DNA of 35,912 nt. Source: a virus. A model generated the notes under the pieces. The model ran no database searches. It was not told the origin of the DNA and worked only from the letters and a program-made list of their open reading frames with translations. Both the position numbers and the translations under genes were made by a program. Below, in pieces: positions 1 through 35,912 of this stretch (within the stretch, counting starts at the first letter, position 1; every line of letters begins with the position of its first letter). The DNA lies in IMG/VR virus record IMGVR_UViG_3300045988_101805, positions 1-35,912 of that record; one strand, written 5' to 3'.

Positions 1-88
1 AGCGTCGTGCTTATCAAGGTAGCTGTCTATTGTTTTATACAAATGGGCGGCTACTATTTTTATTGCTAATACTGCTGAAACAAAAGCT
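1..88. repeat. Terminal direct repeat, copy 1 (identical to 35825..35912)
   Basis: Read base by base: agcgtcgtgcttatcaagg...gaaacaaaagct occurs at both ends of the window. Confidence 0.95.
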
Positions 89-99
89 GTGCAAAGCAT
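1..99 (-). CDS. 5' part (33 codons) of a 49-aa small hydrophobic ORF spanning the circular junction
   Basis: ATG at 99..97 with a weak AGGA 6 nt upstream. Translates MLCTAFVSAVLAIKIVAAHLYKTIDSYLDKHDA and continues in frame at 35824. Below the ORF-track cutoff. Confidence 0.3.
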   Translation of the reverse strand, partial: MLCTAFVSAVLAIKIVAAHLYKTIDSYLDKHDA

Positions 100-174
100 T
101 AGCAGTCCTAAAATTATTACTTCCGTCTTTCTTCACCTCCTTACGCTGTTTTCTGTGAATAAAGCAATGTGTTA

Positions 175-2539: not shown

Positions 2540-2568
2540 ATTATATACTGCTTTTATTCCTTTGTCAA
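2540..2568 (-). promoter_or_regulatory. Consensus leftward (lytic, cro) promoter
   Basis: The minus strand reads TTGACA (2568-2563), 17-nt spacer, TATAAT (2545-2540). Flanked by CTTTAGGA at 2525-2532 and 2572-2579. Confidence 0.7.
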
Positions 2569-2636: not shown

Positions 2637-2669
2637 ATAGTTACAGACCTCTTATAAGGAGAGACAAAA

Positions 2670-3305
2670 ATGGATATAGGAAAAATGATTAACCAAAGAA
2701 GAACCGAATTAAAACTAACTCTTGAACAGGTAGGGCAAGTAGTTGGTGTCGGCAAGAGTACCGTCAAAAAATGGGAAGACGGTTATATATCTAATATGAG
2801 AAGAGATAAAATAGCTTTATTAGCCAAAGTCTTAAAAATGAACCCGGTTTCTTTTATTACTGGTGAATTTAAAGAAGAAGAAGACCAAGCAATCCCACTT
2901 CCGCAAACAAATGTATTTATGCGACCTGTGTATGACAGCATTTCGGCAGGGTTCGGAGCCGTTGCTCAGGATGTGCCTGTTGACTATATGCCTACATACA
3001 TCACTTGCCCCTCAGAACAGGATAAATACATATGGATAAATGTTCACGGCGATTCTATGAGCCCTCTGATTGATGACGGCAGTAAAATTCTTATTAAAAA
3101 ACAAACTTCCGTTGACAGCGGTCAGATTGCCGCAGTCCTCGTTGATGATGAAGAGGCTGTTGTTAAAAAGGTTCTTTACAGCGATAACACCGTTGAACTC
3201 CATTCAGTCAACCCCTACTATCCCCCACGAGTGTTCAAAAATAACGACATCACCCGTGTTCAAATCCTCGGTCTTGTAAAAGAAGTAAGTAAGGCTTTGC
3301 AGTAA
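2670..3305 (+). CDS. CI/LexA-like phage repressor (XRE HTH + S24 autopeptidase)
   Basis: N-terminal HTH LTLEQVGQVVGVGKSTVKKWEDG. C-terminal GDSMSP (catalytic Ser) and VVKKV (Lys), the S24 Ser-Lys dyad. Confidence 0.92.
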   Translation: MDIGKMINQRRTELKLTLEQVGQVVGVGKSTVKKWEDGYISNMRRDKIALLAKVLKMNPVSFITGEFKEEEDQAIPLPQTNVFMRPVYDSISAGFGAVAQDVPVDYMPTYITCPSEQDKYIWINVHGDSMSPLIDDGSKILIKKQTSVDSGQIAAVLVDDEEAVVKKVLYSDNTVELHSVNPYYPPRVFKNNDITRVQILGLVKEVSKALQ

Positions 3306-3368
3306 GCCGGCAACCGTAAGTGTAAAAACACATAAACCACGAATACTATAAAACAAGGAGGAATTCGT

Positions 3369-3590
3369 ATGTCAGCAAAAGAAAAAATCATCAATCTTAT
3401 AAACGACTTTTCAGAAGAACAGCTTGAAGAACTGCTCACTATGTTGCAAAGTTTAAGACATATCGTAGATGACGCAGAAGATGACGCTTATTGTCAGAAA
3501 CTCTATGACGAATACAAGAATAACCCGTCTGATCCGAATGAGAATGTCAGCCTTGAAAATTTTGCAAATGAGTTGGGGATAAATCTGTAA
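3369..3590 (+). CDS. Putative antitoxin of the RelE-type TA pair
   Basis: 73-aa acidic protein with RBS AAGGAGGA. Its stop overlaps the toxin ATG (TAATG at 3588-3592). Confidence 0.6.
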   Translation: MSAKEKIINLINDFSEEQLEELLTMLQSLRHIVDDAEDDAYCQKLYDEYKNNPSDPNENVSLENFANELGINL

Positions 3591-3841
3591 TGAAGTATAA
3601 AATTGAACTGAACAAAAAGGCTCAGAAGTTTATTAAATCTCAGCCCCGCAACCAACAAGAACGAATTTTGAAAGCTGTTTCAAAACTTCCTGACGGTGAT
3701 GTAAAGGCCTTGTCAGGAAACAGCAACGCTTACCGCCTGCGTGTCGGCAATTATCGTGTTATCTATGAAATCAATAACGATATTCTTCTCATAACCGTTG
3801 TTGATGTCGGCAACCGAGGTCAGGTTTATAAGAGAATATAG
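3590..3841 (+). CDS. relE: RelE/ParE-family type II toxin
   Basis: YRLRVGNYRVIYEINNDILLITVVDVGNRGQVY is the typical RelE/StbE C-terminal signature. 83 aa. Confidence 0.85.
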   Translation: MKYKIELNKKAQKFIKSQPRNQQERILKAVSKLPDGDVKALSGNSNAYRLRVGNYRVIYEINNDILLITVVDVGNRGQVYKRI

Positions 3842-3850
3842 GTAATAACT

Positions 3851-4081
3851 ATGACTTGCTTTTATTGTAAAGGTGATATGGTTGACAGCACAACAACCCA
3901 TGTTGAAGATTTGGGCAACTGCATTGTCATCATTCGCAATGTTCCTTGTTCAAAGTGCAGTCAGTGCGGAGAAGTATCCTACAACGGTACTGTATTAAGA
4001 CAGATTGAACAGGTTATTGACAACCTCAAAAATTCACTTACCGAGGTTGCTATCGTAAACTATAAGCCAAGTGTAGCTTAG
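3851..4081 (+). CDS. Stand-alone YgiT/MqsA-type zinc-ribbon protein
   Basis: CFYCKG ... VPCSKCSQCGE pattern (CxxC ... CxxC) with the V-P-x-x-x-C context typical of the YgiT-type Zn finger. No HTH domain follows. Confidence 0.7.
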   Translation: MTCFYCKGDMVDSTTTHVEDLGNCIVIIRNVPCSKCSQCGEVSYNGTVLRQIEQVIDNLKNSLTEVAIVNYKPSVA

Positions 4082-4265: not shown

Positions 4266-5417
4266 ATGCGTTGTAAAAAATGTAAAAAGCAAATTCCGGA
4301 CAAATCTAACTTCTGCAATTGGTGCGGAACAGCAGTTGTCAAGAAACCGCACAGAAGAGCAGACGGAAACTATGAAAAATCAATCTGCATAAACGGCAGG
4401 CGAAAAACCTTTTATGCCAAGACCGAACGAGAGCTTACAAGGAAAATTGCAATGTACAGTGCTGAGCAGGAGCGTAGTAAACGATTTGATGAGCTGGCAG
4501 AGGATTACAAGGATAATTATCTTCCTGAGCTTTCCCCTACTACACAGAAAAGTTACAATACTATTCTTGATAAGTTTACAGATGAATTTAAAGGTCGTGC
4601 GGTAAATGAGATTAAGCCGTCGGATATTCAGAAGAGTATTGACAACCTTTCAAGAACATATACTGCGAAAACAAAACGAAACTACCTTGCCACATTGTCA
4701 AGTGTATTCTCTTTCGCTGTGAGAGCCTCAGAGTACGGAATTGACACTAACCCTTGTAACTATATTAAAATTAAAGGAAAGCCGTCCACGGAGCGTAGAA
4801 TAGCCACAGATGAAGAGATTAAAATAATTTGCAGGAATACAAAAGTTCATTTTGGGTTGTTCGCATTCTTCTTGCTGACAACGGGTTGTCGCAGGTCAGA
4901 GGCTTTGGCTCTCAAATATGAGGATATAGACTTTAAGAATGATGTCATACATATAACAAAGTCGGTCACTTGGGAAAAATCAATCCCTGAATTGAAAGCT
5001 CCTAAGACAGTTAAAGGCATTCGTGATATTTTTCTTGTACCGCACTTGAAAGATGTACTGCCAAAACGAAAAAGAGGTCTTATCTTCCCTTCTTCCAAAG
5101 GTCAGTTGATGACGGAGTGTCAATATGCTACTGAATGGCATAAATATTGTGCTGAATCGGGATTAGATGATTATGCCAATGAAAACAACCTCTCTCCCTT
5201 GACTGCTCATTGCCTTAGGCACAATTATGCTACGATACTTAACGAAGCAGGCATTGACACAAAACAGGCTATGCAGTTGCTCGGTCATGCAAATGAGGCA
5301 ACCACAAAAGATGTTTATACAGCGATAACTGAAAGAAAAAATAAATCCGACAAAGTTCTTGTAACGGAAAAATTTGAAAAACGCATTCAGGAAATCACCG
5401 CAGCCGACAACCCTTGA
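4266..5417 (+). CDS. int: Tyrosine integrase with N-terminal zinc ribbon
   Basis: CKKCKK...CNWCG ribbon. Catalytic residues in GCRRSEAL (R), HCLRHNYAT (HxxR) and LLGHANEATTKDVY (H...Y). RBS AAAGGAG. Confidence 0.93.
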   Translation: MRCKKCKKQIPDKSNFCNWCGTAVVKKPHRRADGNYEKSICINGRRKTFYAKTERELTRKIAMYSAEQERSKRFDELAEDYKDNYLPELSPTTQKSYNTILDKFTDEFKGRAVNEIKPSDIQKSIDNLSRTYTAKTKRNYLATLSSVFSFAVRASEYGIDTNPCNYIKIKGKPSTERRIATDEEIKIICRNTKVHFGLFAFFLLTTGCRRSEALALKYEDIDFKNDVIHITKSVTWEKSIPELKAPKTVKGIRDIFLVPHLKDVLPKRKRGLIFPSSKGQLMTECQYATEWHKYCAESGLDDYANENNLSPLTAHCLRHNYATILNEAGIDTKQAMQLLGHANEATTKDVYTAITERKNKSDKVLVTEKFEKRIQEITAADNP

Positions 5418-6449: not shown

Positions 6450-7247
6450 TTATTTTATTTTTGCGGTATAGTCAAGGGCAATCCAGCCTGCACCGCTTTT
6501 GAGTTTGCCCCACTTTTTAGCGCCTGTGCCTGTTTTTTCGGCAACAATCGTGTACGCTCCGCCCTTGGGGATTGAGCCGCACACGGCATAGTTTGTGCCT
6601 GCACCTTTGCGAATATTTACACCGTCATTTGCGGTAATCCTGACAATGTACGGCTTAAACGCTTTTGATACACTCGGCTTTGCAGTCTGTGCAGGCTTTG
6701 TTGTGCCTGATGAGCTTGCCGACTTGTATTTATAGCCGAAATAGTTGCACATACCCTTGCAGATTGCCTCAGCGATAGCGTTTGTGTTATTGCGAATCCA
6801 GTTTGAGCCTGTCACGGTGTCATGAAATTCACACTCAACATACACAGTTAATGCCCTCGGCACATTGATTTCGTAAAGGTCGGTTTTATAGCTAACCGAA
6901 TCATCCTTGCCGGGCGAGATTGCTCCGAGGGCATTTTTCACCGATTCGGCAGCCTTTCTGCCGTTTGAGTTCAGGCAAAACACTCTTGTACCGCCTGTGT
7001 ATTTGCCGTTAAAAGCGTTGGTGTGAATCGGCATATGAATGTCTGCACCGAACTTGTCCGATTCGGGACAGCGTGTCTGCATAAGCGTTCCCGACTTTGC
7101 GACCATAACCTCAAAACCACAACGCTTAAGAGCTTTGGCTGTTGCGGCGGCGATTTTGTCGCACTGAGCCATTTCGTTTGTACCGCCAGTTGCATAGGTG
7201 TTTCTGTTCTGATTTGACGGACTGAGATAAATTCTTTTTGCTGGCAT
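6450..7247 (-). CDS. Endolysin: N-acetylmuramoyl-L-alanine amidase (Amidase_3-like) + C-terminal SH3 wall-binding domain
   Basis: YLSPSNQ..., IHMPIHTNAF and YVECEFHD are amidase-type Zn/catalytic motifs. The C-terminus GVNIRKGAGTNYAVCGSIPKGGAYTIV...WGKLKSGAGWIALDY is SH3b-like. Confidence 0.9.
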   Translation of the reverse strand: MPAKRIYLSPSNQNRNTYATGGTNEMAQCDKIAAATAKALKRCGFEVMVAKSGTLMQTRCPESDKFGADIHMPIHTNAFNGKYTGGTRVFCLNSNGRKAAESVKNALGAISPGKDDSVSYKTDLYEINVPRALTVYVECEFHDTVTGSNWIRNNTNAIAEAICKGMCNYFGYKYKSASSSGTTKPAQTAKPSVSKAFKPYIVRITANDGVNIRKGAGTNYAVCGSIPKGGAYTIVAEKTGTGAKKWGKLKSGAGWIALDYTAKIK

Positions 7248-7249
7248 AA

Positions 7250-7462
7250 TTATTCCTCACTTTCTTTAACTTCCGGCAAGCCACCGACACTTGTAAGCAT
7301 TGAGAGAATGCCGGCAAGAAGTGTTGAACTTGCAACCGCAACCCAGTTTACATCGCTCATTACTACCGCAACTGAGAGTGTTGCCGCTGCAGTCTGTGCC
7401 ATTGTCTTTGCAGCTCTGATGAGTGCCGCAACCGCCCATTTCTTAATTTTCTTCTTATTCAT
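7250..7462 (-). CDS. Holin (r1t-holin-like, 70 aa)
   Basis: ATG 7462 with AAAGGA RBS. KKWAVAALIRAAKTMAQTAAATL...VNWVAVASSTLLAGILSMLTSV gives two TM helices plus a charged tail. Lies directly upstream of the endolysin. Confidence 0.8.
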   Translation of the reverse strand: MNKKKIKKWAVAALIRAAKTMAQTAAATLSVAVVMSDVNWVAVASSTLLAGILSMLTSVGGLPEVKESEE

Positions 7463-7775
7463 TATTTTCATCCTTTCTAATAGGGTTAGTCGGTAAGTCC
7501 ATGACCTTCTCGTGCATATCGTCCATTGTGCCGTTCTGCCCGAGGTGATGATATGACTGATAACATTTATCATAAGCATCTTTGGCATAAACTTCAATCC
7601 ACCCTCTTTTTATGTATTTTTCGCCCGAGCGGATAAGCTCCGCCCTGAGCAATGACTGTGTACCTTTGCCGATTGCCTTAATCTTGCTCCACTCGGTTTT
7701 TACGATTGCAACAATTGCGGTAAGTATAACGCCAAAAAGGGCCTGCACCCAATATTGTATAATCCAATCCCACAT
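7455..7775 (-). CDS. N-terminally membrane-anchored protein of the lysis cassette
   Basis: WIIQYWVQALFGVILTAIVAIV is a TM helix. The stop overlaps the holin start by 8 nt. Confidence 0.6.
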   Translation of the reverse strand: MWDWIIQYWVQALFGVILTAIVAIVKTEWSKIKAIGKGTQSLLRAELIRSGEKYIKRGWIEVYAKDAYDKCYQSYHHLGQNGTMDDMHEKVMDLPTNPIRKDENNE

Positions 7776-31991: not shown

Positions 31992-33080
31992 TTAATATTT
32001 AACATTGATATAATCCAACACCCTTGCCCAGCCGTATCTTTCGCCTGTTTTATCATCTATACAGCAGTTATACATCCAATAATCCCACTCTTTAGGATTT
32101 CGCTCTTTGAGTAAATCAAATCTATGAGGACGCTTTTCCAAGTGCAAACCGAATCCGCACATTGAACAACCTGTTCTTTGAGCCTTGGTTGTGTACAAAG
32201 TACCATCTTCTTGCCTCTCGATTTTTCCGTATATTTCGGGAACAGGAACATTTAAATCAAGAGCAAGTTGCAAAATATCTTGTCTGTTAAAAATCGCAAA
32301 CGGTGCTGATCTGATTGTAGATTTACCGAAATAATTACAACCATTTATCATTAAGGATTTAGCTCTTCTTCCACCTTCGGAAGCCATCAAGCCAAGATAA
32401 GGCACGCTGTTATGTTCTTTCGCCCAAGTGTCGCAAGGCTTTTCTTTTAGATAATAACAGCATTTTGATGACACTTTGAAATTTGGAATTTGGTAATTTG
32501 TACCCTCTTCATCATTCGCATAACCGCCGAACTTTTCAAGCCACTTTTGCGACATTTTCATACGACTGTTTTTTTGATAACCGCCATAGGCTCCTGTTTC
32601 GCCTGTCACAATAGCATGTCGAACAGTTTTGTTTTTTTCGGTCGGATTTGCAAGTAATTCAATCTTGGCGGCAATTTCTTTTGATAAGACAGGAAATCCA
32701 AACTCTTGAATTATATCCTGCTTAGTCCAGCGGTGTTCTTTTCCTGCACCGTCAACATACCGAACTGATGGCTTTAACCTTTCAATTCCGAGCTCTTTAT
32801 GTATTTTTTGAATGCTTGAATCTTCAAGATAAGAAACGCTGATTCCTGGGGCATGGATTCCGATTGACTTTAAAAAGATAAATAATGTAATGCTATCAAG
32901 ACCGCCGACCGAAACGTGATAGTTTAATTCTCGTTTATCGCATTCTTCGGCAAATTCTCTCGCTCTGATAGTTGCATACTTAACTTTAAATTCATAATCT
33001 TGTTTTTGCTTAACAATGAAATCAGAGATTTTTCTCTGTCCGTCAATTCTTTCCATTCGTTCAAAAACATTTTCTTTCAT
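31992..33080 (-). CDS. PAPS-reductase-family PP-loop enzyme (DndC/IbrA-like)
   Basis: PP-loop SVGGLDS, C-terminal cysteines CSMCGFG and CC. ATG 33080 after GGGGGTGGAGA. Confidence 0.8.
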   Translation of the reverse strand: MKENVFERMERIDGQRKISDFIVKQKQDYEFKVKYATIRAREFAEECDKRELNYHVSVGGLDSITLFIFLKSIGIHAPGISVSYLEDSSIQKIHKELGIERLKPSVRYVDGAGKEHRWTKQDIIQEFGFPVLSKEIAAKIELLANPTEKNKTVRHAIVTGETGAYGGYQKNSRMKMSQKWLEKFGGYANDEEGTNYQIPNFKVSSKCCYYLKEKPCDTWAKEHNSVPYLGLMASEGGRRAKSLMINGCNYFGKSTIRSAPFAIFNRQDILQLALDLNVPVPEIYGKIERQEDGTLYTTKAQRTGCSMCGFGLHLEKRPHRFDLLKERNPKEWDYWMYNCCIDDKTGERYGWARVLDYINVKY

Positions 33081-33355
33081 TTCTCCACCCCCACACATTC
33101 AAAGCCGATTGTTTCGGGTTCTGATGATTCATAAGCTTTGAGCTTGCGGGTAAGCTCTGCGTTTTCAAGGGTAAGTTCGTTTATAACCCTTTCACAGGTG
33201 TTTGCTTTCTTTTTCCAAAGTTCGTTGTTACTGTTCAGAGCGTTACATTTAGCTGTAAGTTCTTCAATAGTCTTGTTGCGTCGGTCAATTGTTTCGATTC
33301 GATTTTCGAGTTCTAAACGCAATGACCTGCGTGTTCTGAAATCTTTAAATGCCAT
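33077..33355 (-). CDS. Coiled-coil 92-aa protein
   Basis: Heptad-like ELENRIETIDRRNKTIEELTAKCNAL.... RBS AAAGGAGC. Confidence 0.65.
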   Translation of the reverse strand: MAFKDFRTRRSLRLELENRIETIDRRNKTIEELTAKCNALNSNNELWKKKANTCERVINELTLENAELTRKLKAYESSEPETIGFECVGVEK

Positions 33356-34011: not shown

Positions 34012-34749
34012 ATGTTTTCAACACTATACAGAAGGGAGTCCTTGACTATACGAAAGACAATATACAACTGTAAATCATTGAACAACGAAGAACATTACAA
34101 AAATCTTGAAATTGAATATCCGCCCGGTTGTCCCATGTGTCACAAAACAGGTAATCCGTTTTGTTTAAGTTCCTACTATATTGAAGATGAATTTACCCGC
34201 CCAAATCTTTTTGTTCATTTTTTCTGTCAAAATTGTGAAAGGACATTTTTAGGGAATTACTATATAGGTCCTTATTACGATAAAACTGAATTTGAAAGTT
34301 TTGAGCCGGTTTACAATACCAAAGAACGAGAATTTCCTAAACACATAAGAGAGTTGTCACCTGATTTTTGCGACATATATAACCAAGCATACGCTTCTGA
34401 ACAGTATGGATTGAAAGATGTTTCGGGTATGGCTTACAGAAAAGCCTTAGAGTTCTTAGTAAAGGATTACGCAATACTGTTACAGCCGAACGATATGGAG
34501 AAGATTGTTAAAGCACCATTATCAAGATGTATTAGCGATTACATTGATAACAAAAAAATCAAGAAATTAGCAATAGCCTCTGCTTGGCTTGGTAATGATG
34601 AAACACATTACGAACGAAAATTCAAAGATTACACTATTGATAACTTAGTCGAATTTATAAACGCTATTGTTTCTTTCATAGATTCAGACATTTCTGTAGC
34701 AATCGCTGAAAATATGATAGAAGAACAAAAAGCTACTCATCAGTCGTAA
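34012..34749 (+). CDS. Zinc-ribbon + DUF4145-like (HEPN-clan-like) protein
   Basis: CPMCHK...CQNCERTF ribbon. The C-terminal half AYRKALEFLVKDYAI...WLGNDETHYE resembles DUF4145. Start uncertain (no RBS at 34012). Confidence 0.65.
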   Translation: MFSTLYRRESLTIRKTIYNCKSLNNEEHYKNLEIEYPPGCPMCHKTGNPFCLSSYYIEDEFTRPNLFVHFFCQNCERTFLGNYYIGPYYDKTEFESFEPVYNTKEREFPKHIRELSPDFCDIYNQAYASEQYGLKDVSGMAYRKALEFLVKDYAILLQPNDMEKIVKAPLSRCISDYIDNKKIKKLAIASAWLGNDETHYERKFKDYTIDNLVEFINAIVSFIDSDISVAIAENMIEEQKATHQS

Positions 34750-34915
34750 ACTTAAAACGCAAATTAAAAAATTCGAGCTGATTGATTGTTTCCTGCAATT
34801 CATCAGCTTGTTTTTTTGCCTTATCTATAAGACTTTCAAATTCCTTAAAATTTGTAACCAATATATTGAGAGTGCCGTCATTTGATGAATAGTTACCAAA
34901 CATTTTTTCTTCCAT
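34733..34915 (-). CDS. 60-aa helical protein, convergent with and overlapping 34012..34749
   Basis: RBS AGAGGTGAG 4 nt before ATG 34915. 17-nt 3' overlap with the + gene. Confidence 0.55.
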   Translation of the reverse strand: MEEKMFGNYSSNDGTLNILVTNFKEFESLIDKAKKQADELQETINQLEFFNLRFKFTTDE

Positions 34916-34940
34916 TTTCTCACCTCTTTTCGATATTTTA

Positions 34941-34969
34941 TTGCTTTATTACCCAGATAATGTTATTAT
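34941..34969 (+). promoter_or_regulatory. Sigma-A promoter for the Abi-alpha-like gene
   Basis: TTGCTT (34941-34946), 17-nt spacer, TATTAT (34964-34969). RBS AAAGGTGGTG precedes ATG 34993. Confidence 0.6.
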
Positions 34970-34992
34970 TTATTTAGAAAGGTGGTGCACAT

Positions 34993-35808
34993 ATGAGTGA
35001 CCAAAACATAAATGATACTGCTTATGGTGTTACAAAAGCTGTTTTAGAATCAGAAGCAGTAAGTAATCTTACAAATCCACCAACAAAAGTTGCAGGTGGT
35101 CTGTTAGCCGATTTCATAAACTTAACTGTAGGTGGCATACACTATGCTTCAATAAAAGCCGAATTAAAGCGCCAAAAAAAGTTTGAAGACTTTAAAGCTA
35201 ACATTCAAAAGGGTGTAGATAATATTCCAACAGAACATAAAGTTGAATCGAGAGAATCGATTATTGGACCTGCTCTTGAAAAAGCGAAATACTTTATGAA
35301 TGAAGACGAAATTCGTGAAATGTTTGAAAAGTTAATCGTCAATTCATTCGACAGTAGAAAAATCGAAAAAATTCATCCGTCTTTTTCTGACATCATTCAA
35401 CAAATGTCGCCTATAGATGCCCAGAATTTGAAATGTTTTGCAAACGAAGAGCGTTTACCTGTGTGCGAAATACAATTAAACCTAACAGACGCTTCTCACA
35501 GAACTTTGCTAACTAATGTTTTTTGCGGTAATAAATTGTGTAATTCAATTGAACAACAATCAATATCTTTGTCATCCTTATCTCGTATAGGGATTATAAA
35601 AATTGCATACGATGAATACTTAACCGATGATTCGTTTTATAAGATTTTTGATTCATTACCTTTAGTGATAGGTTTGAAAAATCAAGTTGAAGCTGATAAC
35701 AAAATTAATAACACTAATTTTAAAATTGATTTGCAAAAGGGAGTGGCAACACTTACTCCCGTGGGAAAAGCTTTTATTGATGTTTGTCTTCGTCCTTTGC
35801 CCACTTAA
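34993..35808 (+). CDS. Abi-alpha (DUF4393)-like abortive-infection candidate
   Basis: IIGPALEKAKYFMNEDEIREMFEKLIVNSFDSRKIEKIHPSFSDIIQQMSPIDAQNLK matches my memory of the Abi_alpha core (ALE...L..MFA.LL....HPsF..II.qLsp.DA..L). Confidence 0.65.
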   Translation: MSDQNINDTAYGVTKAVLESEAVSNLTNPPTKVAGGLLADFINLTVGGIHYASIKAELKRQKKFEDFKANIQKGVDNIPTEHKVESRESIIGPALEKAKYFMNEDEIREMFEKLIVNSFDSRKIEKIHPSFSDIIQQMSPIDAQNLKCFANEERLPVCEIQLNLTDASHRTLLTNVFCGNKLCNSIEQQSISLSSLSRIGIIKIAYDEYLTDDSFYKIFDSLPLVIGLKNQVEADNKINNTNFKIDLQKGVATLTPVGKAFIDVCLRPLPT

Positions 35809-35824
35809 TCAGATCCATAATTTG
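35774..35824 (-). CDS. 3' part (16 codons + stop) of the junction-spanning 49-aa ORF
   Basis: Continues QIMDLIKWAKDEDKHQ, stop at 35776..35774. Overlaps the 3' end of the + strand gene 34993..35808 by 35 nt, convergently. Confidence 0.3.
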   Translation of the reverse strand, partial: QIMDLIKWAKDEDKHQ

Positions 35825-35912
35825 AGCGTCGTGCTTATCAAGGTAGCTGTCTATTGTTTTATACAAATGGGCGGCTACTATTTTTATTGCTAATACTGCT
35901 GAAACAAAAGCT
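35825..35912. repeat. Terminal direct repeat, copy 2 (identical to 1..88)
   Basis: Same 88 nt as the window start. Indicates circular assembly overlap or terminal redundancy. Confidence 0.95.

Follow-up and report, generated by a model that had tools for sequence, protein, structure and literature searches.

Abi-alpha, an abortive-infection (Abi) protein, is defined by ef2833 of prophage 6 (pp6) in Enterococcus faecalis V583, and its mechanism is understood no further than premature lysis (PMC6356687). Described as cloned individually with its own promoter, ef2833 abolishes plaquing by phage Idefix, and the infected cells are killed, lysing about 10 min earlier; the gene has a mapped transcription start site of its own, the sole structural relative of its protein is 3H35, and the authors propose collapse of the proton motive force or interference with the holin as the route to premature lysis (PMC6356687). 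In a phiNM1 lysogen, a protein of the same DUF4393 family accounts for 42% of the prophage protein and is the most abundant of the prophage proteins (bioRxiv 10.1101/2025.10.23.684294). Here we describe a member of this family, the abi-alpha gene (abi for short) at the end of the IMG/VR virus record IMGVR_UViG_3300045988_101805 (positions 1 to 35,912; the whole stretch of 35,912 nucleotides (nt) is referred to below as the window), together with a small gene for a membrane peptide that converges on it and overlaps its 3′ end. The Abi_alpha type of defence is known; what is new is the conserved convergent membrane-peptide partner, and no mention of a small partner for Abi-alpha was found in the literature searched.

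The window protein resembles ef2833 in that it belongs to the same family over its full length (271 versus 272 amino acids (aa)) and is prophage-borne, with a predicted promoter of its own on the lysogeny side, but it is only about 30% identical to the enterococcal-type members. In addition, ef2833 is described as a single-gene system, whereas the window cassette and its enterococcal relatives (loci L089 and L276-L279 of our collection) have a convergent peptide gene. This comparison is drawn from the published description of the prototype. In searches for the prototype locus, primers JL8/JL9 from the supplement of the ef2833 paper were seen to amplify a fragment of approximately 530 bp elsewhere in pp6-like prophages, the JL13 18-mer gave no match, the JL12 15-mer was unspecific (more than 120 matches), and neither walking pp6-like contigs nor a profile scan of IMG/VR gave a locus with the primers or with Abi.

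A second point of comparison is Tha, a defence protein of 80alpha that is restrained by Ith, a small inhibitor whose gene lies on the other strand, an arrangement termed a "noncontiguous operon"; further antisense genes of 80alpha (orf11, orf17/orf19 and orf72 in the figure legend) switch transcription on induction (Rostol et al. 2024, PMC11087260). The gene order would make orf19 the DUF4393 gene of 80alpha, because the phiNM1 DUF4393 protein A0EWI8 precedes homologues of ORF20/21 (bioRxiv 10.1101/2025.10.23.684294). As in the Tha/Ith loci of 80alpha and phiNM2, a prophage defence gene and a small partner lie on opposite strands in our cassette; in Tha/Ith, transcription of the two overlaps, and lysogenic (defence on) and lytic (defence off) expression are mutually exclusive. 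However, the proteins are unrelated, Tha being a HEPN RNase and Ith the soluble product of a 201-nt gene, and the wiring differs as well, as ith has its own promoter inside the cI operon, whereas in the cassette the private promoter belongs to the defence gene, and the partner, a membrane peptide, would be carried along by the lytic operon. Inhibition by Ith has been demonstrated; inhibition by the peptide is something that we only infer.

In the shape of its small gene, the locus also recalls txpA/RatA, bsrG/SR4 and par/fst, type I toxin–antitoxin loci of Firmicute prophages whose small peptides have an N-terminal transmembrane helix and a charged tail. Our locus shares with them the small transmembrane peptide, the charged tail and the convergent units that overlap at their 3′ ends, but it shows no sequence similarity to them, and the combination of a dedicated toxin promoter with an antisense RNA that marks type I systems is absent: the cassette holds no peptide promoter, and the antisense partner is the mRNA of a conserved 271-aa protein. 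Among systems described as acting through lysis, AbiZ of Lactococcus lactis causes premature lysis through the holin and has no sequence similarity to Abi-alpha (PMC6356687). AbiZ and the Abi-alpha prototype thus share a phenotype class, lysis too early. We know of no small convergent partner reported for AbiZ. Finally, PADLOC lists PDC-S47 as a candidate system, which is matched here by the Abi protein only, in a scan of seven proteins that did not include the small peptide.

The Abi_alpha gene and its convergent partner

Window positions 1-88 and 35825-35912 are identical, and because the start and end share these 88 nt we take the record to be a circular genome of 35,824 bp, so that features run across the window ends. 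The phage that carries the locus is a temperate tailed phage of gut Clostridia, of the Ruminococcus group, and the closest cellular copy of the abi-alpha region is in Ruminococcus intestinalis (L045). The elements of the locus and of the junction are as follows, with the evidence for each.

34993..35808, plus strand: abi-alpha gene, 271 aa (Abi_alpha/DUF4393); open reading frame (ORF) and PF14337 match
35774..35912, minus strand: small membrane-protein gene, 3′ part (46 codons, then the stop codon at 35776-35774); profile and dN/dS (ratio of nonsynonymous to synonymous substitution rates)
89..126, minus strand: small membrane-protein gene, 5′ part past the junction; family start codon position 126-124 (ACG)
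136..142, minus strand: ribosome-binding site (RBS) of the small gene, AAGGAGG, spaced 9 nt from codon 126-124; conservation of the cassette ends with it
34928..35912, continuing at 89-142 past the junction, no strand: two-gene cassette, main part, approximately 1,039 bp in total; blastn block
1..88, no strand: terminal redundancy; exact 88-nt identity with 35825-35912

The plus-strand ORF at 34993-35808 had been singled out in an original prediction made from the sequence alone, which took a segment of its 271-aa product for the Abi_alpha/DUF4393 core and proposed a PF14337 search as a check. The ORF and the quoted segment are present in the sequence, and the search gives a full-length match (E 9.7e-45; 153.4 bits versus a cutoff of 29) in which residues 59-265 align to model positions 1-196 of 196. 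The assignment is borne out further by matches to all three PADLOC PDC-S47 models (best E 1.9e-44) and to phrog_2232 (E 8.7e-67). Alignments with phage and bacterial members show the core motifs GP.LE..K, H.SF..II.Q..P.DA..L and a C-terminal G..F...C, with invariant or near-invariant columns at G92, P93, E96, H128, S130, D142, A143, L146, G258, F261 and C265. The product is a full-length Abi_alpha/DUF4393 protein. Its AlphaFold (AF2) model (mean confidence, pLDDT, 85.8) consists of an alpha/beta body and a 40-residue helix, with the N-terminus disordered, and the sole structural neighbour of the model is the uncharacterised 3H35.

At the 3′ end of abi, the same prediction had described a 49-aa ORF (MLCTAFVSAVLAIKIVAAHLYK...) on the minus strand, which runs from an ATG at 99-97 through the junction to the stop codon at 35776-35774 and overlaps abi by 35 nt. 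The gene is real and conserved, but 49 aa is a truncated reading of it: the family protein has 58-59 aa, because the start that follows AAGGAGG lies nine codons upstream of the internal ATG, at window position 126-124. Across 39 copies of the cassette, this codon is ACG in 27 (the window included), GTG in 8 and ATG in 4, with ATG in L029-L032 and GTG in the loci of a second sequence variant. Many relatives in the databases begin MEVIII... or MKVIII..., i.e., at the upstream start (one such cluster has 161 members), and other family members are called as 49 aa from the internal ATG. In the window itself, the two candidate starts are the ACG, which is very weak, and the internal ATG, preceded by a weak AGGA. 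The ACG is kept with a strong RBS at optimal spacing, which points either to attenuated, non-canonical initiation or to a shift to the internal ATG.

The small ORF is under purifying selection. It is intact in all 37 close relatives with sufficient flank, so that the loss or interruption in relatives keeping the large gene, which the original prediction had named as evidence against the gene, is not what is seen. Between the two sequence variants of the cassette, dN/dS over non-overlapping codons is 0.30 in the frame of the ORF versus 0.89 and 1.43 in the others, and the segment encoding the transmembrane helix has diverged to 56% nucleotide identity with its hydrophobicity kept. Independent gene callers also report members of the small-ORF family.

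The family consists of single-pass membrane proteins of 50-65 aa, and sequence analysis of its members agrees with the earlier description of one transmembrane helix and a charged tail. The N-terminal flank is short, with about 2 residues and 0.13 Lys+Arg before the helix, and 2.8 Lys+Arg fall within the first 15 residues past it. The helix itself contains about 4 Ser/Thr, often spaced i/i+4, and the tail of about 34-35 residues is 36% charged. From this distribution of Lys and Arg, the positive-inside rule would place the N-terminus outside and the charged, helical tail in the cytoplasm. The small peptides match no model in Pfam or NCBIfam; the streptococcal, enterococcal and staphylococcal types match only families of unknown function in PHROGs, and the window-type peptide matches nothing in Pfam, NCBIfam or PHROGs. 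A holin-like peptide, which had also been suggested, does not agree with these searches, as the best match of five small peptides to the holin families of Pfam was Phage_holin_6_1, at an E-value of 0.061 (below cutoff). The phage has separate lysis genes at 6450-7597 (endolysin, 6450-7247; holin, phrog_443, 7250-7597), approximately 7 kb from the small ORF around the circle. On these grounds, we rejected the holin reading.

Boundaries of the cassette

Close relatives of the Abi protein (82-94% identity) are encoded on 40 IMG/VR contigs. Comparison of about 40 IMG/VR loci with the window by blastn reveals a single shared block, from 34912/34925 across the junction to 142, with several unrelated flanks on either side. 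On the left, homology breaks off 13 nt upstream of the abi −35 element, where the sequence varies between contexts; on the right, it ends immediately upstream of the small-ORF RBS. What is shared comprises the abi promoter, abi-alpha, the convergent small ORF and the small-ORF RBS, and the cassette therefore supplies abi with a promoter and the small ORF with an RBS only. We hold with high confidence that the Abi_alpha gene and a genuine, co-inherited membrane-peptide gene together form a mobile cassette. Both of its ends (34916-34930, and 127-142 on the minus strand) consist of an RBS-like AAGAGGTGA followed by a lytic-strand start codon, which suggests exchange between phages by recombination at ribosome-binding sites.

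The DUF4145-like gene at 34012-34749 had been considered either an independent module or part of one multi-gene system with abi. It lies outside the cassette boundaries and is common to only 1 of the approximately 40 relatives (L042), and it is therefore not part of the unit: independent modules stand, and a single system that includes it is ruled out by the boundaries. The 34012-34749 protein itself has no match to DUF4145 (PF13643) at E<=1 and matches phrog_1305, "DNA binding protein"; of its homologues, one (43% identity) has a PF13643 match and another (48% identity) bears the name DUF4145 at NCBI.

Distribution of the pair

To place the pair in the wider family, we use a survey of 83 diverse Abi_alpha loci (79 species-representative genomes and 4 phages), in which Abi identity reaches down to approximately 26-30%; this and the other surveys include related loci, and their counts are not counts of independent events. 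A convergent ORF of 45-80 aa with an N-terminal transmembrane helix and a charged tail lies over the abi 3′ end at 31 of the 83 loci, versus 0 of 219 control long ORFs from the same loci (Fisher p 3e-20). The peptide profile matches 37 of the 83 at E<1e-3, with E-values that reach 1e-24 at a fixed position relative to abi, and all of its matches at E<1e-2 are at the convergent 3′ position. Among a further 80 IMG/VR loci, of the enterococcal and streptococcal types, 59 have the peptide (E<0.01). Conversely, all 28 distinct places found to encode the small protein have a convergent PF14337 gene.

The pair occurs in more than 20 genera of Bacilli, Clostridia, Negativicutes and Tissierellia (Ruminococcus, Streptococcus, Gemella, Enterococcus, Vagococcus, Limosilactobacillus, Lentibacillus, Cytobacillus, Clostridium, Acetobacterium, Alkalibaculum, Peptoniphilus, Veillonella, Anaeroglobus and others) and persists to about 28-30% Abi identity. 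Among annotated phages, Roseburia phage Jekyll and the pneumococcal IPP23 have the same arrangement, and staphylococcal phage 77 has a different, 38-aa peptide in this arrangement. Pairwise distances of Abi and of the peptide correlate (Mantel r 0.58, p 0.001), and by their sequences the Abi–peptide pairs are cognate.

Variations on the arrangement can be seen at individual loci. Tandem Abi_alpha genes that differ from each other occur on two streptococcal phage contigs (L287, 1034-1955 and 2809-3768; L288, 2501-3422 and 4276-5235), and each of these genes keeps its own matching subtype of small ORF, and L283 has two tandem copies of the small ORF behind one Abi gene. At L103, L106 and L076, Abi is intact and the small ORF has decayed; because Abi stays intact there, the partner is not an essential antitoxin. 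The opposite state, a truncated abi with an intact peptide gene, occurs at L100 and L111. In chromosomes of the Streptococcus australis type (L125-L134), the pair (peptide gene at 2501-2683, Abi at 2643-3410) survives in a tiny remnant flanked by DegV/HU and Fur genes, where a piece of a Peptidase_S24 repressor beside it is the only other obvious phage gene. This peptide sequence is present in 194 blocks of the collection, and the layout is the same in every contig examined.

Predicted expression of the two genes

The predicted expression signals of the two genes, all of them pattern-based in the case of promoters and terminators, are as follows.

34941..34969, plus strand: predicted abi-alpha promoter, TTGCTT (34941-34946), 17-nt spacer, TATTAT (34964-34969)
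34978..34987, plus strand: abi-alpha RBS, AAAGGTGGTG, 5 nt before the ATG; conserved
35842..35888, plus strand: terminator-like hairpin with a stem of about 16 bp (35842-35879), then ATTTTTATT; RNA fold z −2.5
35739..35760, minus strand: weak hairpin, then UUUU, downstream of the small-ORF stop codon and inside abi; z −0.4, not significant versus shuffles

The putative promoter and strong RBS of abi, both noted in the original prediction, are present and appear to travel with the gene across copies of the cassette. A TG at 34961-34962 gives the promoter an extended −10 element (TG-n-TATTAT, 34961-34969). Over 41 copies, the promoter and RBS stretch is nearly invariant, a few copies having 1-3 point differences; the −35 differs in one, the spacer in two, and the extended −10 is identical throughout. 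This promoter was not among the predictions of our consensus promoter scan, since its −35 matches TTGACA at 3 of 6 positions by our count, below the 4-of-6 rule of the scan. The abi gene lies on the strand of cI and the integrase (the lysogeny strand), opposite the structural genes. Its orientation, its private promoter and the existence of lysogen-expressed homologues are consistent with the earlier suggestion that it is expressed in the lysogen.

The hairpin and ATTTTTATT at 35842-35888 (equivalent to window 18-64), which lie within the coding sequence of the small ORF, are likely to mark the end of the abi mRNA. Among 38 diverse loci, 15 have a hairpin and T-run downstream of the abi stop codon, compared with about 5 expected from shuffles, and in 11 of these 15 it is at most approximately 110 nt from the abi stop codon, inside the small ORF. 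The weak hairpin at 35739..35760 is tentatively a possible 3′ end of the small-ORF transcript.

The small ORF appears to depend on transcription from outside. Because the cassette gives it an RBS but no promoter, it would be read from transcripts in the lytic direction. The gene upstream of it is co-directional in 26 of 36 loci, at a distance of no more than 30 nt in 14; in other copies of the cassette, the peptide gene is one of several consecutive small ORFs that share its direction, a few hundred nt past a short helix-turn-helix (cro-like) gene, and its place in streptococcal prophages is between cI and the cro-like gene. In the window, two plus-strand genes come next upstream of the small ORF, and a scan of the minus strand from 143 to approximately 690 gave no consensus promoter. 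The lytic-strand genes on the two sides of abi are the small ORF and a 60-aa ORF at 34733-34915, and the orientation and predicted promoter of abi fit a noncontiguous operon of the Tha/Ith type.

Possible roles of the membrane peptide

The reading that we favour, to which we would give somewhat less than an even chance, is a life-cycle off-switch of the Tha/Ith type, in which the peptide and antisense transcription would protect the phage's own lytic growth. Given its own promoter and its position on the lysogeny strand, abi-alpha would be made in the lysogen, where Abi-alpha, by analogy with the E. faecalis prototype, would abort infection by other phages through premature lysis. The small ORF would be expressed only from transcripts that enter in the early lytic direction of the phage and continue antisense through abi. 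A resident phage going lytic would then make the small protein, which may act at the membrane as a cognate inhibitor or modulator of Abi-alpha, and would at the same time silence abi by convergent transcription, thereby avoiding the abortion of its own growth. We favour this off-switch because the peptide has no promoter of its own, because the gene is placed for lytic-direction transcripts, and because the prototype is reported to work as a single cloned gene. Indeed, a partner that is not needed for defence would fit the full resistance given by ef2833 when cloned individually (a clone known to us by the paper's description). What the analysis establishes is the family membership, the limits of the cassette and its conservation, the purifying selection on the small gene and its exclusive linkage to abi, and how the expression signals are arranged. 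The timing of expression, the topology and, above all, the inhibitory role of the peptide are matters that we infer.

Several observations weigh against the off-switch. The inhibitory role rests on analogy. The small gene is missing from about a quarter to half of Abi_alpha loci, and many Abi_alpha genes are followed by ordinary convergent phage genes in its place; an off-switch protein is thus not universally required, as the loci that lack the peptide include prophages in which abi is antisense to lytic genes. Orphan small genes without Abi, which would be evasion factors and which exist for ith, were not found, in searches of low sensitivity: tblastn with the staphylococcal peptide returned nothing, probably owing to low-complexity masking, and the tblastn matches of the pneumococcal-type peptide were to three phages only, all with Abi. 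The streptococcal remnant keeps the pair without lytic genes, where a self-immunity factor should be useless. Expression of the small ORF in the window may be very low, given its ACG start and the lack of a co-directional gene or consensus promoter directly upstream. Lastly, the premature-lysis phenotype of the prototype fits a membrane effector equally well.

That last point leads to the main rival, a two-component Abi system in which Abi-alpha acts through the small membrane protein as its effector or partner at the membrane; we regard it as unlikely, though worth serious attention. Here, Abi-alpha would sense infection and engage the cytoplasmic tail of the peptide, the peptide would oligomerise via its Ser/Thr-striped helix, and the membrane would be depolarised or permeabilised, so that the holin of the invader is triggered early and lysis is premature. 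Such an effector would account for the phenotype of the prototype, for which collapse of the proton motive force or holin interference has been proposed (PMC6356687), and agrees with the single-pass architecture of the partner (about 4 Ser/Thr per helix, often i/i+4, and a long cytoplasmic tail), with cognate, co-inherited pairs and with retention of the pair in a streptococcal chromosomal remnant that no longer makes phage. It is harder to reconcile with a peptide that has no promoter in the cassette and is oriented for lytic-direction rather than lysogenic transcripts, with the ACG start in most copies of the cassette, with the many Abi_alpha genes that have no partner or keep Abi beside a decayed one, and with the reported sufficiency of ef2833 when cloned individually (PMC6356687; the clone by description only). 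A different use of the same architecture, which we consider improbable, would have the peptide as a TxpA/BsrG/Fst-like membrane toxin and, as its cis-antisense antitoxin RNA, the abi mRNA 3′ end, with which two thirds of the peptide coding sequence overlap; loss of abi transcription at infection would free the toxin. The shape fits (a prophage-borne peptide of 38-65 aa with an N-terminal transmembrane helix and a charged tail), as do the convergent, overlapping 3′ ends and the position of the abi terminator-like hairpin approximately 70-105 nt into the peptide gene. But such a toxin lacks a promoter in the cassette, that hairpin was seen at no more than 15 of 38 loci, abi can be intact beside a decayed peptide gene, and Abi-alpha is itself a conserved protein under selection, more than the carrier of a 3′ untranslated region (UTR); moreover, were abi RNA the antitoxin, the truncated abi with an intact peptide gene at L100 and L111 should be lethal, although the 3′ UTR may survive there.

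The two remaining explanations deny the peptide any part in Abi-alpha function. The small ORF could be an ordinary early-lytic gene of unrelated function (e.g., membrane remodelling or superinfection exclusion) whose adjacency to abi is kept only since phage recombination breaks at the RBS-like sequences that bracket both genes. In line with this, both cassette ends are at RBS-like AAGAGGTGA motifs of lytic-strand genes, as is typical of mosaic joints, and translational coupling of the small gene to the lytic gene before it is frequent. Mere adjacency, however, should have broken over the divergence across which linkage holds (to about 28-30% Abi identity, in more than 20 genera); the small-gene family was never seen away from Abi in these surveys, and tandem pairs keep matching subtypes. 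We therefore disfavour a physical hitch-hiker and judge it rather unlikely. An antisense ORF so short, in AT-rich DNA, might be suspected of being open by chance, given that hydrophobic peptides arise easily from T-rich antisense and that the window has ACG at the canonical start. The 0 of 219 controls and the frame-specific purifying selection rule this out for practical purposes, and the profile E-values to 1e-24 at a fixed position, the several variants with canonical starts and the reports of independent gene callers leave it a vanishingly small probability.

The phage genome around the cassette

Elsewhere in the genome, structural, replication and lysis genes are on the minus strand, and the plus strand carries genes for a cI-like repressor (2670-3305), an integrase (4266-5417) and a RelE-like toxin. 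The minus strand also has a perfect TTGACA-17-TATAAT promoter (2568..2540), directed at a cro-like gene. A nucleotide search of an isolate-phage collection with this phage gave no match, which leaves it with no close relative among sequenced isolates.

Two plus-strand genes, at 224-574 and 756-1412, lie between PR and the cassette and have no family match; one of the products (116 aa) resembles a DNA-binding domain that has a transmembrane helix at its C-terminal end. Counting abi and the DUF4145-like gene, four genes of the plus strand are thus interspersed among those of the lytic strand, much as in a noncontiguous operon. In the interval from the cI repressor to the integrase, the RelE-like toxin gene (3590-3841, plus strand; phrog_1213, E 2e-23) is preceded by a 73-aa ORF (3369-3590) whose stop codon overlaps the start codon of the toxin gene, and the two (3369-3841, plus strand) are a probable toxin–antitoxin pair. 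A 76-aa Cys-rich, zinc-ribbon-like ORF follows at 3851-4081. In the early region, a 368-aa protein (31992-33098, minus strand) has a sub-threshold match to the PAPS-reductase domain (E 6e-4; 20.3 bits versus a cutoff of 22.5).

Implications for the Abi-alpha family

Abi-alpha/DUF4393 genes are among the commonest prophage-borne defence genes in Gram-positive bacteria, and the small partner described here has been overlooked by defence-system finders (the PADLOC scan above did not take in the peptide) and is unnamed in all the family libraries searched. A compact cassette, delimited by a promoter at one end and an RBS at the other and moving between phages, should also be useful for annotating similar "moron" units.

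On balance, we lean towards the view that, in a large part of the family, Abi-alpha is a two-gene module with a cognate micro-membrane protein on the lytic strand that, along with convergent transcription, would couple defence to the phage life cycle, whether as an anti-autoimmunity inhibitor or as the executor of premature lysis. A cognate partner would open two questions to experiment: by what route Abi-alpha reaches the membrane or the lysis clock, and how a prophage escapes its own Abi on induction. If true, the two-gene module would extend the Tha/Ith principle to an unrelated and widespread Firmicutes defence, and would provide the first mechanistic handle on Abi-alpha.

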